Assembly (NCBI RefSeq): GCF_030013595.1
Contig: NZ_CP122768.1
Source: Escherichia coli
GTDB lineage: Bacteria; Pseudomonadota; Gammaproteobacteria; Enterobacterales; Enterobacteriaceae
DNA length: 64,000 nt
Direction: 5' to 3' (one strand)
Shown here: piece after piece, positions 4,001 to 61,078 of the stretch
How the letters are laid out: each line of letters starts with the position of its first letter
Numbering within the stretch: the stretch's first letter is position 1
Made by a program: the position numbers and the translations under genes
The notes under the pieces: generated by a model
The model's database searches: none
Seen by the model: only the letters and a program-made list of their open reading frames with translations
Told to the model about the DNA's origin: nothing

Positions 4001-4934
4001 GGGTTGCCAGTTCAGGCAGCGTTTCTTGCTCCGCAATATGAATACCCAGCGGCAAAACGTTGAGCACGGGTCCGGTAGCCGTCAGCGCCGCCGAGCCCAG
4101 TCGACGCATAAAGATAAATCCGGCGGCGTAGTCCATGCGATTGCACAATCGCCCCAGCCATAAGGCCGTCAGCGCAAGGGCTAAATCGGTACGCTGCACA
4201 CCTGAAAGTTGCGTAGCCAGCTGGCGGAATTCCCCGTCGGTAAATTCCAGTTTCAGGCGCAAAATATCTGCCGAAGCGCTGCGCCCCGGTAAAGGTGCCG
4301 GAGAAAGTGACGCGGGCGGCGGCAGTTGACGACGCTGTTCCGCCCAGAATGCCGCATCACGCTGCCAGGCTTCGCTTTCGCGGTATTGCTGGTACTCCTC
4401 CACTACATCAGCGAAAGGCGTAAACGGCGAAGCAGGCGTTGGTTCGCCACGCAGCCATGCGCAGTAAATATTGGCGATCTGGCGAGTAATGGCCGGGAAA
4501 CTGAAGCCATCGACCAGCAAATGGTGATAACGCTGATACCAGTACCAGCGGTTATCCGCCACCTGATTGAGCTGATGAAAGACCAGCGGTTTGCCGCTGT
4601 CGGCACGTAGATTTTGCTGTAAATCCGCCTGCATTAATGCCTGCGCAGTACCGTGCGGATCAATGTTGGTTCGCAGGTCGATAATTTCTGGTAGTTCAAA
4701 CGTCAGCGCATCATCGACCCATTGCCAGACTTCGCCGTTATCTTCCGTAAAACGCATCCGCAGCGTATCTGCTTGCGCTAATCCGGCAACCACCGCGCGG
4801 GCCAGTAATGGCGCATCAACCTCTCCGGTTAACTCAACGTAATGCGCCACGCTCCAGGCGGAGGGTAAATCCGACAGTTTTTCTGCCATCCAGATGCCGG
4901 GCTGTGCGGCGACCAATGGTAAATGCTGGCTCAT
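1053..4934 (-). CDS. entF: Enterobactin synthase component F (NRPS: condensation, adenylation, PCP, thioesterase domains)
   Basis: ORF 1053..5072; true start taken at internal ATG 4934 (MSQHLPLVAAQPGIWMAEKL...), giving 1293 aa. AMP-binding motif FTSGSTGRPKGV, PCP motif GGHSL and C-terminal thioesterase-like region are visible. Confidence 0.95.
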   Translation of the reverse strand: MSQHLPLVAAQPGIWMAEKLSDLPSAWSVAHYVELTGEVDAPLLARAVVAGLAQADTLRMRFTEDNGEVWQWVDDALTFELPEIIDLRTNIDPHGTAQALMQADLQQNLRADSGKPLVFHQLNQVADNRWYWYQRYHHLLVDGFSFPAITRQIANIYCAWLRGEPTPASPFTPFADVVEEYQQYRESEAWQRDAAFWAEQRRQLPPPASLSPAPLPGRSASADILRLKLEFTDGEFRQLATQLSGVQRTDLALALTALWLGRLCNRMDYAAGFIFMRRLGSAALTATGPVLNVLPLGIHIAEQETLPELATRLAAQLKKMRRHQRYDAEQIVRDSGRAAGEEPLFGPVLNIKVFDYQLDIPGVQTQTHTLATGPVNDLELALFPDEHGDLSIEILANKQRYDEPTLIQHAERLKMLIAQFAADPALLCGDVDIMLPGEYVQLAQINATQVEIPETTLSALVAEQAAKTPDAPALADARYLFSYREMREQVVALANLLRERGVKPGDSVAVALPRSVFLTLALHAIVETGAAWLPLDTGYPDDRLKMMLEDARPSLLITTDDQLPRFADVPDLTSLCYNAPLTPQGSAPLQLSQPHHTAYIIFTSGSTGRPKGVMVGQTAIVNRLLWMQNHYPLTGDDIVAQKTPCSFDVSVWEFFWPFIAGAKLVMAEPEAHRDPLAMQQFFAEYGVTTTHFVPSMLAAFVAPLTPQTARQNCATLKQVFCSGEALPADLCREWQQLTSVPLHNLYGPTEAAVDVSWYPAFGEELAQVRGSSVPIGYPVWNTGLRILDAMMHPVPPGVAGDLYLTGIQLAQGYLGRPDLTASRFIADPFAPGERMYRTGDVARWLDNGAVEYLGRSDDQLKIRGQRIELGEIDRVMQALPDVEQAVTHACVINQAAATGGDARQLVGYLVSQSGLPLDTTALQAQLRETLPPHMVPVVLLQLPQLPLSANGKLDRKALPLPELKAQAPGRTPKAGSETIIAAAFSSLLGCDVQDADADFFALGGHSLLAMKLAAQLSRQFARQVTPGQVMVASTVAKLATIIDGEEDSSRRMGFETILPLREGNGPTLFCFHPASGFAWQFSVLSRYLDPQWSIIGIQSPRPSGPMQTAANLDEVCEAHLATLLEQQPHGPYYLLGYSLGGTLAQGIAARLRARGEQVAFLGLLDTWPPETQNWQEKEANGLDPEVLAEINREREAFLAAQQGSTSTELFTTIEGNYADAVRLLTTAHSVPFDGKATLFVAERTLQQGMSPERAWSPWIAELDIYRQDCAHVDIISPGAFEKIGPIIRATLNR

Positions 4935-5149
4935 TGCGCCTCCTGCAACTGGGTGAAATTCGACGGTGTCAGAGTACGCCAGTGGGCTTCCAGCCACTGC
5001 TGGCAGGACGCCTGTGACTGCGGCTGACACACAACGTCCCAGCCTGCCGGTAAGGCGCATTGTTGCGGCCACAGACTGAATTGCCCCTGCGCATTGCGCA
5101 AAATGTAAAACGCTCCCTGCGGATCATCGAAGGGATTACTGAATGCCAT
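4931..5149 (-). CDS. ybdZ: MbtH-like protein YbdZ (enterobactin synthesis accessory protein)
   Basis: 72-aa product MAFSNPFDDPQGAFYILRNAQGQFSLWPQQCALPAGWDVV...; stop overlaps entF start (ATGA-type coupling). Confidence 0.9.
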   Translation of the reverse strand: MAFSNPFDDPQGAFYILRNAQGQFSLWPQQCALPAGWDVVCQPQSQASCQQWLEAHWRTLTPSNFTQLQEAQ

Positions 5150-5151
5150 AT

Positions 5152-6354
5152 TCAACTCCTGTCATGGAAAAGTGGTTGCCAGAGGTCGATTAGCCCCTGC
5201 ATCAAGCCACCGCGCCAACAAAGCGCATCATGTCCGCCGTCAACCTGACGCCAGAAAATGGATTCTTTTATAGGGTGTAATTGCGCATACAGCGCCTGAT
5301 TGGCCCGCATGATCATCGGCTCGCGAATACCCGCTTCCAGCACAATGCGCAGACCTTCGGCGCTAACTTCACCAGTTTTTAGCTGTTCAAGTAACACGCC
5401 CTCTTGCTGCCCGCCCCGATGCGGCCACCAGTATGATCCTGACTGGCTTAATACACAGCCAAAGCGTTCAGGCCAGTTTAGTCCGGCATACAGCGCGGAA
5501 AGCCCACCAAAACTCTGCCCGGCGACCACGGTGCGATCGGCGCGATCGCTAAAAGGGGCAATAGCTTTCACCAGGGGTAATAACTCTTGCTGTACTGCCA
5601 GCCAGAAATCCGCATTACACGGCAGTTCGTAAGCGCGGTGCGTGGTGTCGATAGCGTCGATCAACACATACACGGCGGGAGGAAGTTGCCGACGATGGGT
5701 CAACGAAGTCAGCACAGGCCAGACGGGCATACTCTGCGCCCAAAATTCACCATCAAGCAAAACTGCCAGCGGGCGTTCTTCTGCTGTTGCATCGCCGGTG
5801 GTAAAAATCCATACACGGCGTGAATTTTTCAACCGTTCACTTTTCCAGATAATTTCTTTGGCAGGCGTTTCTGGCGCTTGCGGACAATCCCATCCCGGTT
5901 GCAGAGGCGCTTGCGGCATTTCGAGTGCAGAAACAGCGTGCCCTCGCCCGCCTTTCCAGCTTTGTGGATTCAGCGGATCGGCTATCGCCTGGGGTAATAG
6001 TTTTCGCCAGCCTTCACGTAATTCGAGGCGATCGGGGGATGGTGCAGAAAAAATGTCATCGCGTTCGGTGGGAATAAAGCAGTAGCTGCCGCGCCAGTTG
6101 GCATTGAGCTGTGTCGTCCACTGCCAGACGTTGGTGCCTGCAATTCGCTGCATCGACTGGGGCTGGCTGTTCTGATGGTGATCGGTCACACCAGTGATGT
6201 AGACCCATACGCGCTTTATCGTCGAGTATTCTTCAGAACCTTGGGGATCACGCCACCAGAAAGTAACCTCAAACATTTCGTCATTCAGACGCTGCCATTC
6301 CGGGCCATGTTTCGACTGCCACCAGCTCTCACTTCCTACTTTTAACGCCGTCAC
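5152..6354 (-). CDS. fes: Enterochelin (ferric enterobactin) esterase Fes
   Basis: 400-aa ORF MTALKVGSESWWQSKHGPEWQRL..., esterase motif GQSFGG; a shorter internal start is also possible. Confidence 0.9.
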   Translation of the reverse strand: MTALKVGSESWWQSKHGPEWQRLNDEMFEVTFWWRDPQGSEEYSTIKRVWVYITGVTDHHQNSQPQSMQRIAGTNVWQWTTQLNANWRGSYCFIPTERDDIFSAPSPDRLELREGWRKLLPQAIADPLNPQSWKGGRGHAVSALEMPQAPLQPGWDCPQAPETPAKEIIWKSERLKNSRRVWIFTTGDATAEERPLAVLLDGEFWAQSMPVWPVLTSLTHRRQLPPAVYVLIDAIDTTHRAYELPCNADFWLAVQQELLPLVKAIAPFSDRADRTVVAGQSFGGLSALYAGLNWPERFGCVLSQSGSYWWPHRGGQQEGVLLEQLKTGEVSAEGLRIVLEAGIREPMIMRANQALYAQLHPIKESIFWRQVDGGHDALCWRGGLMQGLIDLWQPLFHDRS

Positions 6355-6399
6355 ACCATAACCCCATGTTTACTGTGCAATTTTTCATTGATTGCAGAA

Positions 6400-6440
6400 A
6401 TATATTGATAATATTATTGATAACTATTTGCATTTGCAAT
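6400..6440. promoter_or_regulatory. Fur-box cluster in the divergent fes / fepA promoter region
   Basis: Overlapping GATAAT-type hexamers (attgataatattattgataactatttgcatttgcaat) in the 242-bp intergenic region between divergent iron-regulated genes. Confidence 0.6.
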
Positions 6441-6596
6441 AGCGTAATGGCGCGCCGTGGGAAGCGCGGACATTAATTAACCAACTGCACTGAGTGTCTT
6501 TCAGGATCAAAGGTTTTCGCGGTAGCGGGATGCGTCGTGTTGATGACGACCATGCCCGACAGTTGCAATTCGTGGCAAAAATGCAGGAATAAAACA

Positions 6597-8837
6597 ATGA
6601 ACAAGAAGATTCATTCCCTGGCCTTGTTGGTCAATCTGGGGATTTATGGGGTAGCACAGGCACAAGAGCCAACCGATACTCCTGTTTCACATGACGATAC
6701 CATTGTCGTTACCGCCGCCGAGCAGAACTTGCAGGCGCCTGGCGTTTCGACCATCACCGCAGATGAAATCCGCAAAAACCCGGTTGCCCGCGATGTGTCG
6801 GAGATCATCCGTACCATGCCAGGCGTTAACCTGATCGGTAACTCCACCAGTGGTCAGCGTGGGAATAACCGACAGATTGATATTCGCGGCATGGGTCCGG
6901 AAAACACGCTGATTTTGATTGACGGCAAGCCGGTAAGCAGCCGTAACTCGGTGCGTCAGGGCTGGCGTGGCGAGCGCGATACCCGTGGTGATACCTCCTG
7001 GGTGCCACCTGAAATGATTGAACGTATTGAAGTTCTGCGTGGTCCGGCGGCTGCGCGTTATGGCAACGGCGCGGCGGGCGGCGTGGTTAACATCATTACC
7101 AAAAAAGGCAGTGGTGAGTGGCACGGCTCCTGGGACGCATATTTCAATGCGCCAGAACATAAAGAGGAAGGTGCCACCAAACGCACTAACTTTAGCCTCA
7201 CCGGTCCGCTGGGCGACGAATTCAGCTTTCGCTTGTATGGCAACCTCGACAAAACTCAGGCTGACGCGTGGGATATCAACCAGGGCCATCAGTCCGCGCG
7301 TGCCGGAACCTATGCCACGACGTTACCAGCCGGGCGCGAAGGGGTGATCAATAAAGATATTAACGGCGTGGTGCGCTGGGACTTCGCACCATTGCAATCG
7401 CTGGAACTGGAAGCGGGTTACAGCCGCCAGGGTAACCTGTATGCGGGCGATACCCAGAACACCAACTCTGACGCTTACACTCGCTCGAAATATGGCGATG
7501 AAACCAACCGTCTGTATCGCCAGAACTACTCGCTGACATGGAACGGCGGCTGGGATAACGGCGTGACCACCAGCAACTGGGTGCAGTACGAACATACCCG
7601 TAACTCGCGTATTCCGGAAGGTCTGGCGGGCGGCACAGAAGGGAAATTTAACGAAAAAGCGACACAGGATTTCGTCGATATCGATCTCGATGACGTGATG
7701 CTGCACAGCGAAGTTAACCTGCCGATTGATTTCCTCGTTAACCAGACGCTGACGCTGGGTACGGAGTGGAATCAGCAGCGGATGAAGGACTTGAGTTCCA
7801 ACACCCAGGCGCTCACCGGGACGAATACCGGCGGCGCTATTGATGGCGTGAGTGCGACAGACCGTAGCCCATATTCAAAAGCAGAAATTTTCTCGCTGTT
7901 TGCCGAAAACAATATGGAGCTGACTGACAGCACCATCGTAACGCCGGGGCTGCGTTTCGATCATCACAGCATTGTTGGCAATAACTGGAGTCCGGCTCTA
8001 AACATATCGCAAGGTTTAGGCGATGACTTCACGCTGAAAATGGGCATTGCCCGTGCTTATAAAGCGCCGAGTCTGTACCAGACTAACCCAAACTACATTC
8101 TCTACAGTAAAGGTCAGGGCTGCTATGCCAGCGCGGGCGGCTGCTATCTGCAAGGTAATGATGACCTGAAAGCGGAAACCAGCATCAACAAAGAGATTGG
8201 TCTGGAGTTCAAACGCGACGGCTGGCTGGCGGGCGTCACCTGGTTCCGTAACGATTATCGCAATAAGATTGAAGCGGGCTATGTGGCTGTAGGGCAAAAC
8301 GCAGTCGGCACCGATCTCTATCAGTGGGATAACGTACCGAAAGCGGTGGTTGAAGGTCTGGAAGGATCGTTAAACGTACCGGTTAGCGAAACGGTGATGT
8401 GGACCAATAACATCACTTATATGCTGAAGAGTGAAAACAAAACCACGGGCGACCGTTTGTCGATCATCCCGGAGTATACGTTGAACTCAACGCTGAGCTG
8501 GCAGGCACGGGAAGATTTGTCGATGCAAACGACCTTCACCTGGTACGGCAAGCAGCAGCCGAAGAAGTACAACTATAAAGGTCAGCCAGCGGTTGGACCG
8601 GAAACCAAAGAAATCAGCCCGTACAGCATTGTTGGCCTGAGCGCGACCTGGGATGTAACGAAGAATGTCAGTCTGACCGGCGGCGTGGACAACCTGTTCG
8701 ACAAACGTTTGTGGCGTGCGGGTAATGCCCAGACCACAGGCGATCTGGCAGGAGCCAACTATATCGCCGGTGCCGGGGCATATACCTATAACGAGCCGGG
8801 ACGTACGTGGTATATGAGCATTAATACTCACTTCTGA
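6597..8837 (+). CDS. fepA: TonB-dependent ferric enterobactin outer-membrane receptor FepA
   Basis: ORF 6537..8837; start taken at MNKKIHSLALLVNLGIYGVAQA (signal peptide), 746 aa; TonB box DTIVVTA, C-terminal aromatic residue (F). Confidence 0.95.
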   Translation: MNKKIHSLALLVNLGIYGVAQAQEPTDTPVSHDDTIVVTAAEQNLQAPGVSTITADEIRKNPVARDVSEIIRTMPGVNLIGNSTSGQRGNNRQIDIRGMGPENTLILIDGKPVSSRNSVRQGWRGERDTRGDTSWVPPEMIERIEVLRGPAAARYGNGAAGGVVNIITKKGSGEWHGSWDAYFNAPEHKEEGATKRTNFSLTGPLGDEFSFRLYGNLDKTQADAWDINQGHQSARAGTYATTLPAGREGVINKDINGVVRWDFAPLQSLELEAGYSRQGNLYAGDTQNTNSDAYTRSKYGDETNRLYRQNYSLTWNGGWDNGVTTSNWVQYEHTRNSRIPEGLAGGTEGKFNEKATQDFVDIDLDDVMLHSEVNLPIDFLVNQTLTLGTEWNQQRMKDLSSNTQALTGTNTGGAIDGVSATDRSPYSKAEIFSLFAENNMELTDSTIVTPGLRFDHHSIVGNNWSPALNISQGLGDDFTLKMGIARAYKAPSLYQTNPNYILYSKGQGCYASAGGCYLQGNDDLKAETSINKEIGLEFKRDGWLAGVTWFRNDYRNKIEAGYVAVGQNAVGTDLYQWDNVPKAVVEGLEGSLNVPVSETVMWTNNITYMLKSENKTTGDRLSIIPEYTLNSTLSWQAREDLSMQTTFTWYGKQQPKKYNYKGQPAVGPETKEISPYSIVGLSATWDVTKNVSLTGGVDNLFDKRLWRAGNAQTTGDLAGANYIAGAGAYTYNEPGRTWYMSINTHF

Positions 8838-60144: not shown

Positions 60145-60170
<26 letters not shown>

Positions 60171-60690
60171 TCAGCAACCCCGGTATCAGTTCATCCAGCG
60201 CGGCTGCTTTGTTCATGGCTTTGATGATATCCCGTTTCAGGAAATCAACATGTCGGTTTTCCAGTTCCGGAAAACGCCGCTGCACCGACAGGGGGATCCC
60301 GTCGAGAATACTGGCAATTTCACCTGCGATCCGCGACAGCACGAAAGTACAGAATGCGGTTTCCACCACTTCAGCGGAGTCTCTGGCATTCTTCAGTTCC
60401 TGTGCGTCGGCCTGCGCACGCGTAAGTCGATGGCGTTCGTACTCAATAGTCCCTGGCTGGAGATCTGTCTCGCTGGCCTGCCGCAGTTCTTCAACTTCCC
60501 GGCGCAGCTTTTCGTTCTCAATTTCAGCATCCCTTTCGGCATACCATTTTATAACGGCGGCAGAGTCATAAAGCACCTCATTACCCTTGCCACCGCCTCG
60601 CAGAACGGGCATTCCCTGTTCCTGCCAGTTCTGAATGGTACGGATACTCGCACCGAAAATGTCAGCCAGCTGCTTTTTGTTGACTTCCAT
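60145..60690 (-). CDS. Nu1: Terminase small subunit Nu1
   Basis: 181-aa ORF MEVNKKQLADIFGASIRTIQNWQEQGMPVLRGGGKGNEVLYDSAAVIKWYAERD... with N-terminal HTH; overlaps A start. Confidence 0.95.
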
Positions 60691-60855: not shown

Positions 60856-60896
60856 CGAAAACCCGCGAGGTCGCCGCCCCGTAACCTGTCGGATCG
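60856..60896 (-). other. cos site (cosN with adjacent cosB side toward Nu1)
   Basis: Plus strand gcgaaaacccgcgaggtcgccgccccgtaacctgtcggatc is the reverse complement of the lambda cohesive-end region; aggtcgccgccc (60868-60879) corresponds to the 12-nt cohesive end GGGCGGCGACCT. Confidence 0.85.
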
Positions 60897-61078
60897 CCGG
60901 AAAGGACCCGCAAAATGATAATAATTATCATCTACATGTCACAACGTGCATCTACGCCATCAAACCACGTCAAATAATCAATTATGACGCAGGTATCGTA
61001 TTAATTGATCCGCATCAACTTAACGTAAAAACAACTTCAGACAATACAAATCAGCGACACTGAATACGGGGCAACCTC

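Follow-up and report, generated by a model that had tools for sequence, protein, structure and literature searches.

The genes fes and fepA stand back to back in the enterobactin locus of Escherichia coli, and the DNA between their start codons carries overlapping GATAAT-like repeats. We asked whether these repeats form a Fur operator that closes both divergent transcripts at once, or whether they are simply the AT-rich signals of the promoters themselves, and how far the transcript on the fes side extends. A reading made from the letters alone (the sequence-only reading) had proposed a Fur-box cluster together with a fes-ybdZ-entF-fepE operon joined by translational coupling. The window is the whole 64-kb stretch of E. 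coli DNA that was analysed, and the genes around the repeats are arranged as follows.

6355-6596 (242 bp): fes/fepA intergenic region, between the fes GTG (6354-6352, minus strand) and the fepA ATG (6597)
5152-6354, minus strand: fes coding sequence, enterobactin esterase, 400 aa, GTG start (ORF list and RefSeq annotation)
4931-5149, minus strand: ybdZ coding sequence, enterobactin biosynthesis protein YbdZ, 72 aa
1053-4934, minus strand: entF coding sequence, enterobactin non-ribosomal peptide synthetase, 1293 aa
6597-8837, plus strand: fepA coding sequence, ferric enterobactin outer-membrane receptor, 746 aa (ORF list and RefSeq annotation)

The next gene after fepA is entD, and the enterobactin locus as a whole is inverted in the window relative to K-12. 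The names fes, ybdZ, entF, fepA and entD were confirmed in RefSeq, both for K-12 and for an identical E. coli record. A 2.1-kb query across the locus found matches in 5,414 of 5,426 complete E. coli genomes; among the matches listed, all carried the annotations fes, fepA, ybdZ and entF. The intergenic region aligned without gaps to K-12 MG1655 612495-612736, with 241 of 242 bases identical. The sole substitution (A at window position 6493, C in K-12) falls at -104 in the fepA leader, outside the operator. Because the intergenic DNA differs at this one base, experimental results from K-12 transfer directly to the window. The Fur protection, the Fur- and iron-dependent expression, the position of the fepA 5' end (-146) and the structure of its leader, all described below, come from the K-12 literature.

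The feature is the known bidirectional, Fur-controlled fepA-fes region. It matches the K-12 control region (Pettis et al. 1988; Hunt et al. 1994; Escolar et al. 1998; Chen et al. 2007) in locus, genes, footprint position, promoters and junctions, and differs from it by the substitution at 6493 and by its flanking coding sequence, whose divergence from most E. coli genomes is about 1.4%. The base equivalent to 6493 is a C in E. whittamii and in Escherichia sp. MOD1-EC7003. Positions 4800-6900 were 100% identical to only two E. coli genomes, both pig-derived, with the other 5,412 at 98.6% or less. At full length, the window was not collinear with its best-matching record (NZ_CM149870.1), and the offset had grown to about 866 bp by position 60881.

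The left edge of the intergenic region depends on where fes begins. The Shine-Dalgarno sequence of fes reads as an ACCCC block on the plus strand that is largely conserved across genera (core CCC/CTC), the first 26 Fes residues (6274-6354) are conserved as protein in other genera, and in most of them the homology reaches back to the first residue of the 400-aa form. We therefore consider the GTG start and the 400-aa form supported, since the block is conserved and homology begins at residue 1. The -149 distance to fes given by Chen et al. 2007 (PMC2189734) agrees with a shorter form, used earlier, that begins at Met27 (6276). The leader that results is as follows.

6355-6404, minus strand: putative fes 5' untranslated region of about 50 nt, with Shine-Dalgarno GGGG at 6365-6362

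The predicted fold of this fes leader was unremarkable. Two mini-ORFs within it (ATG at 6367 and 6359) were rejected because their ATG codons are not conserved across genera.

On the minus strand, fes is followed by two very tight gene junctions.

5147-5154, minus strand: fes/ybdZ junction, with the fes TGA at 5154-5152, then AT, then the ybdZ ATG at 5149-5147, leaving a 2-nt gap
4931-4934, minus strand: ybdZ/entF ATGA overlap, with the ybdZ TGA at 4933-4931 and the entF ATG at 4934-4932

The sequence-only reading had described both the 2-nt gap and the ATGA overlap correctly, although they lie about 1.2-1.4 kb outside the coordinates it gave (6355-6596). The geometry of the junctions makes translational coupling of fes, ybdZ and entF plausible. 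However, the sequence does not demand coupling because ybdZ and entF are each preceded by a strong Shine-Dalgarno sequence (AGGAG at 7 nt from the ybdZ ATG and GGAGG at 6 nt from the entF ATG). The same tight junctions could reflect genome compaction and nothing else, with ybdZ and entF translated independently from these ribosome-binding sites. The ATGA overlap, moreover, is not universal among relatives: it is kept in Escherichia and Kosakonia, replaced by a 2-3 nt gap in Franconibacter, and absent in Pseudescherichia, Escherichia sp. ESNIH1 and Siccibacter. Against independent translation, tight spacing is found in most of the Enterobacteriaceae examined (the Siccibacter ybdZ/entF spacing not being counted), and we judge it a possible but somewhat unlikely explanation. 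The sequence GACAGGAGT precedes the ybdZ ATG in all 10 Enterobacteriaceae loci where ybdZ was found; Brenneria differs. As an MbtH-like partner, YbdZ binds EntF; matched amounts of the two proteins would therefore make sense, and coupling would suit a 1:1 complex. Pettis and McIntosh are said to have reported coupled fes-entF expression in 1987.

Whether the operon also includes fepE is less clear. The name fes-ybdZ-entF-fepE that the sequence-only reading used is a published one (PMC10763504), and fes, ybdZ and entF fit it well. We regard the membership of fepE as less certain because of a palindrome and promoter-like sites in front of it, Fur-like matches at or near its start, and its lack of a listing in the Fur-1 iModulon. 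The entF-fepE gap (838-1052, 215 bp) contains an AT-rich palindrome with a 16-bp stem at 1002-1040 on the minus strand, 13 nt after the entF stop, whose arms GATAAACCCATAATTAC...GTAATTATGGGTTTATC are followed by the T-rich tail ATTTATTT. Two minus-strand promoter-like sites overlap the palindrome, and one more falls within entF, close to its end. These elements may attenuate read-through into fepE or may mark a separate fepE promoter. The second-best Fur-matrix match in the window (17.7 bits, 750-768, identical in K-12 at 618323) lies about 70 nt inside fepE, and K-12 has a 12.7-bit match at the entF stop. The Fur-1 iModulon includes fepA, fes, ybdZ, entF and entD, and fepE is absent from its gene list (PMC10164565).

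We then turned to the repeats between fes and fepA. Two copies of TATTGATAA lie 12 bp from each other, at 6403-6411 and 6415-6423; a tandem pair of TTTGCA lies at 6427-6438, and an imperfect palindrome runs across 6393-6432. Matches to the 19-bp Fur box overlap in a regular register.

6395-6437: Fur operator, five overlapping 19-bp Fur-box matches in a 6-bp register, starting at 6395, 6401, 6407, 6413 and 6419

When compared with the consensus GATAATGATAATCATTATC, single 19-mers were moderate: the best, at 6419, agreed at 13 of 19 positions, and 22 other positions in the window did equally well or better. We also built a palindromic 19-bp log-odds matrix from 11 DNase-footprinted K-12 operators (fepD-entS, fepB, entC, fur, tonB, cir, sodA, fecA, fecI and the two sites of fhuF; Chen et al. 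2007, Table 3), leaving fepA-fes out of the training. Recognizable Fur-box-like sites were present in the training regions, and the conversion of the footprint coordinates is supported because every footprint fell in the expected intergenic region. The sequence-only reading had named a Fur position weight matrix as the check on its proposal, which the lack of any significant score in the region would have refuted; the region passed this check. The sites at 6419, 6413, 6407, 6401 and 6395 scored 14.1, 12.5, 7.2, 7.0 and 3.9 bits and ranked 4, 5, 30, 33 and 120 among 63,982 positions, while the 6-bp-phased sum of the five (44.7 bits) ranked first of 63,958 in the 64-kb window. Among 2,000 first-order Markov sequences of 242 bp with the region's own composition, none reached the observed phased sum, one reached the summed positive score and 21 reached the score of the single best site. 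Because the counts are far lower for the array than for a single site, the Fur signal is the cluster and not any one box. This agrees with the published picture of Fur operators as groups of sites that overlap, most of them at 6-bp spacing (Chen et al. 2007, PMC2189734). The single 19-mers are not strong consensus matches, and the case rests on the array together with a published footprint.

6399-6446: Fur DNase I footprint at fepA-fes, mapped from K-12 NC_000913.2 611868-611915

Table 3 of Chen et al. 2007 (PMC2189734) lists these coordinates for the footprint that Hunt et al. 1994 obtained. They were carried from NC_000913.2 to NC_000913.3 with a shift of +777, which was fixed by the -172 distance to fepA given by Chen et al. 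2007. The window is identical to K-12 across the whole footprinted site. Chen et al. 2007 (PMC2189734) described four overlapping Fur sites here, the strongest (18.7 bits) at 611889, or about 6425 in the window, and a more recent diagram shows five overlapping Fur sites along with one promoter for fes and two in tandem for fepA, whose transcripts are marked as minor and major (PMC10763504). The title of Escolar et al. 1998 refers to coordinated repression of the fepA and fes promoters in vitro. Fur ChIP-seq combined with expression data places fepA-entD in the direct regulon (PMC4676285), and ChIP-exo combined with expression data in nine E. coli strains identifies the fep and ent genes as core Fur targets (PMC10164565).

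If the cluster is an operator, it should be read against the promoters on either side. Promoter and start-site positions were reconstructed from secondary sources, and we infer the exact hexamers as follows.

6411-6439, minus strand: probable fes promoter, -35 TTGCAA (6439-6434), 17-nt spacer, -10 TAATAT (6416-6411)
6388-6417, plus strand: upstream fepA promoter, -35 TTGATT (6388-6393), 18-nt spacer, -10 TATTAT (6412-6417)
6417-6445, plus strand: downstream fepA promoter, -35 TTGATA (6417-6422), 17-nt spacer, -10 TAGCGT (6440-6445)

The putative fes hexamers score 8 of 12, under the threshold of the scanning tool, and both lie in a block that is invariant across genera. The upstream fepA promoter was the sole match when we scanned 6200-6750, a number of hits no higher than in shuffled sequence. 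Its -10 element occupies the same base pairs as the fes -10. For the downstream fepA promoter, a substitution that creates TAGAGT in the -10 element of one fepA promoter raises fepA expression by 3-4 log2 (PMC10763504); TAGCGT at 6440-6445 is the only hexamer here that fits this mutant, and 5 nt separate it from the mapped 5' end downstream, at 6451. Transcription probably starts near 6404 for fes and near 6424 for the upstream fepA promoter, in agreement with the 19 bp that separate the published fes and fepA starts (PMC4469952). The two sources on the fepA transcripts (PMC11979758 and PMC10763504) differ on which one is major. The Fur array covers the fes -35 and -10 hexamers as well as fepA -10 and -35 hexamers.

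This overlap raises the alternative that the GATAAT-like repeats are nothing more than AT-rich elements belonging to two overlapping sigma-70 promoters (-10 hexamers and UP-like DNA), with an incidental likeness to Fur boxes. The Fur consensus is itself AT-rich and similar to -10 hexamers, the single-site matches are moderate, with about 1% of composition-matched nulls reaching the best single score, and the same base pairs act as -10 and -35 elements. However, no other cluster in the 64 kb scores as high as the 6-bp-phased array and no null reached it, the array coincides with the published Fur DNase I footprint on identical sequence, and Fur ChIP and regulon data include the flanking genes. 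Promoter and operator roles are also not exclusive, and their overlap is the mechanism. We therefore find an incidental likeness highly improbable. The AT-rich core at 6395-6446 is almost certainly a single Fur operator shared by the divergent fes-ybdZ-entF(-fepE) and fepA-entD units. The sequence-only reading thus held for its main proposals: the Fur-box cluster in the divergent promoter is present as five phased matrix sites within the published footprint, the overlapping repeats lie where it had put them (about 6400-6440, inside the footprint at 6399-6446), and iron-dependent Fur repression of both divergent transcripts is borne out by the ChIP-seq, ChIP-exo and expression literature on K-12 and nine strains.

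The sequence features, their significance and their conservation were observed directly in this analysis. For conservation, we translated the TonB-box peptide of FepA (DDTIVVTAA) back into a degenerate DNA pattern and searched a collection of species-representative genomes with it, which returned 34 loci, 19 of them in Enterobacterales. The divergent fes/fepA arrangement was present in 17 of these 19; the two exceptions were an E. albertii locus that ends before fes and Brenneria, whose FepA N-terminus is too diverged for alignment. Every divergent fes/fepA locus contained a Fur cluster, 52-68 nt from the fes start and 115-228 nt from the fepA ATG. An alignment of 15 intergenic regions revealed two conserved blocks, an operator/promoter core (6407-6446) and then GCGCGC-YGTGGGAA-GCGCG (6450-6468). 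Across seven genera (Escherichia, Pseudescherichia, Enterobacter, Phytobacter, Kosakonia, Franconibacter and Siccibacter) the operator block hardly varies and stays at a fixed distance from fes, while the remaining intergenic DNA diverges. Brenneria has a similar Fur cluster, ending in CATTTGCAATA, and the GC hairpin is absent there.

The second conserved block lies at the start of the fepA leader, which makes up more than half of the intergenic region and went unmentioned in the sequence-only reading.

6451-6596, plus strand: fepA 5' untranslated region, 146 nt, on which several small RNAs are documented to act
6451-6468, plus strand: stem-loop I, a 5-bp stem (CGCGC/GCGCG) with the 8-nt loop CGTGGGAA, at the extreme 5' end of the fepA mRNA

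Primer extension placed the predominant fepA 5' end at -146, which corresponds to window position 6451 (PMC11979758). The leader has been probed chemically, confirming the 5-bp stem of stem-loop I, and the small RNAs ArrS, RseX and SdsR need stem-loop II-b (PMC11979758). The window leader is the same as this hub of small-RNA control (PMC11979758 and the OmrA/OmrB studies cited there), with no structural difference. A scan of 4800-7000 against Rfam at E ≤ 1 returned no family. The minimum free energy fold of the leader (-146 to +45) was no better than that of shuffled sequences (z = 0.13) and did not reproduce the probed stem-loop I.

Stem-loop I was the only part of the leader conserved across the seven genera; the other parts, including the II-a/b/c region used by ArrS, RseX and SdsR, were not alignable outside Escherichia. 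The 4-bp GCGC core of its stem is invariant and the loop reads YGTGGGAA in 13 of 15 sequences. Covariation was minimal: the outer pair shows one compensatory change (C-G to U-A in Kosakonia arachidis) and is broken in four sequences, and the inner four pairs never vary. We rejected the possibility that stem-loop I is a dispersed repeat, as it is present in a single copy per E. coli genome. An upstream ORF in the fepA leader (6530-6592, 20 codons, MRRVDDDHARQLQFVAKMQE) was likewise rejected as a conserved element because this segment is deleted or unalignable outside Escherichia. It ends 4 nt before the fepA ATG, overlaps the fepA Shine-Dalgarno sequence and has no clear ribosome-binding site.

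Truncation of stem-loop I caused no significant change in a reporter, and most of the small RNAs tested still act when it is removed; control by RprA was lost in a -120 construct and regained in shorter constructs (PMC11979758). Because truncation left expression and most small-RNA control intact, the cross-genus conservation of stem-loop I is unexplained by the published data. We suggest, as a rather doubtful proposal, that stem-loop I and its DNA have a role beyond those assigned so far. The hairpin may shield the 5' end of native fepA mRNA from decay. Alternatively, since 6451-6468 sits at about -47 to -64 of the putative fes promoter, a role at the DNA level is possible, and the block may be a site for the "other regulatory component" suspected by Hunt et al. 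1994.

This block also bears on the idea that H-NS, Fnr, CRP or another factor is the main regulator at fes/fepA and Fur a secondary one. That idea draws on the conserved stem-loop I DNA (6451-6468), which has no assigned role, and gains from mutations outside the promoter determinants that, in the 1994 work of Hunt and colleagues, reportedly lowered fes and fepA and suggested other components, but it is hardly credible given that loss of repression in fur mutants, like dependence on iron, has been documented in nine strains and that such factors would supplement Fur control, not substitute for it. Inspection of 6440-6480 by eye for a CRP or Fnr consensus found nothing convincing.

With Fur as the main regulator acting through one shared operator, the region would operate as follows. 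When iron is plentiful, Fe2+-Fur dimers would occupy about five overlapping sites at 6-bp spacing. The array they form would overlie the -10 bases common to fes and fepA (6411-6417), the -35 of fes at 6434-6439, both elements of the downstream fepA promoter (6417-6445) and the probable start sites, so that RNA polymerase would be shut out of the three promoters together. Under iron scarcity, Fur would depart and transcription would proceed in both directions. Toward fes, with ybdZ beginning 2 nt past the fes stop and the entF start lying within the ybdZ stop, three proteins would be encoded on one message and their translation would probably be linked by the tight junctions. Toward fepA, the 146-nt leader would contribute small-RNA control.

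Like fepB-entC and fepD-entS, the other two-way promoters under Fur control in the ent cluster, whose operators were part of the matrix training set, fes/fepA is a pair of divergent iron-regulated operons with overlapping Fur sites clustered at 6-bp spacing. Unlike fepB-entC, which has two separate protected regions, one per promoter, fes/fepA has one compact operator in which -10 elements share base pairs. It is a textbook case of a single metal-sensing repressor closing two divergent operons through a single compact operator, one that governs the uptake and release of the enterobactin siderophore and so matters for iron acquisition and virulence. Its confirmation here brings no new biology, though it demonstrates that a real regulatory site can be recognized from sequence alone. 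The by-products are a Fur matrix that has been tested and a small alignment across genera, which together mark the constrained parts of the region.

The same matrix gave its best match in the window elsewhere, at 60911-60935 (22.6 bits, CAAAATGATAATAATTATC), with an overlapping 15.3-bit site. This predicted site is intergenic and lies about 220 bp upstream of nohD (60145-60690, minus strand) in a lambdoid prophage.
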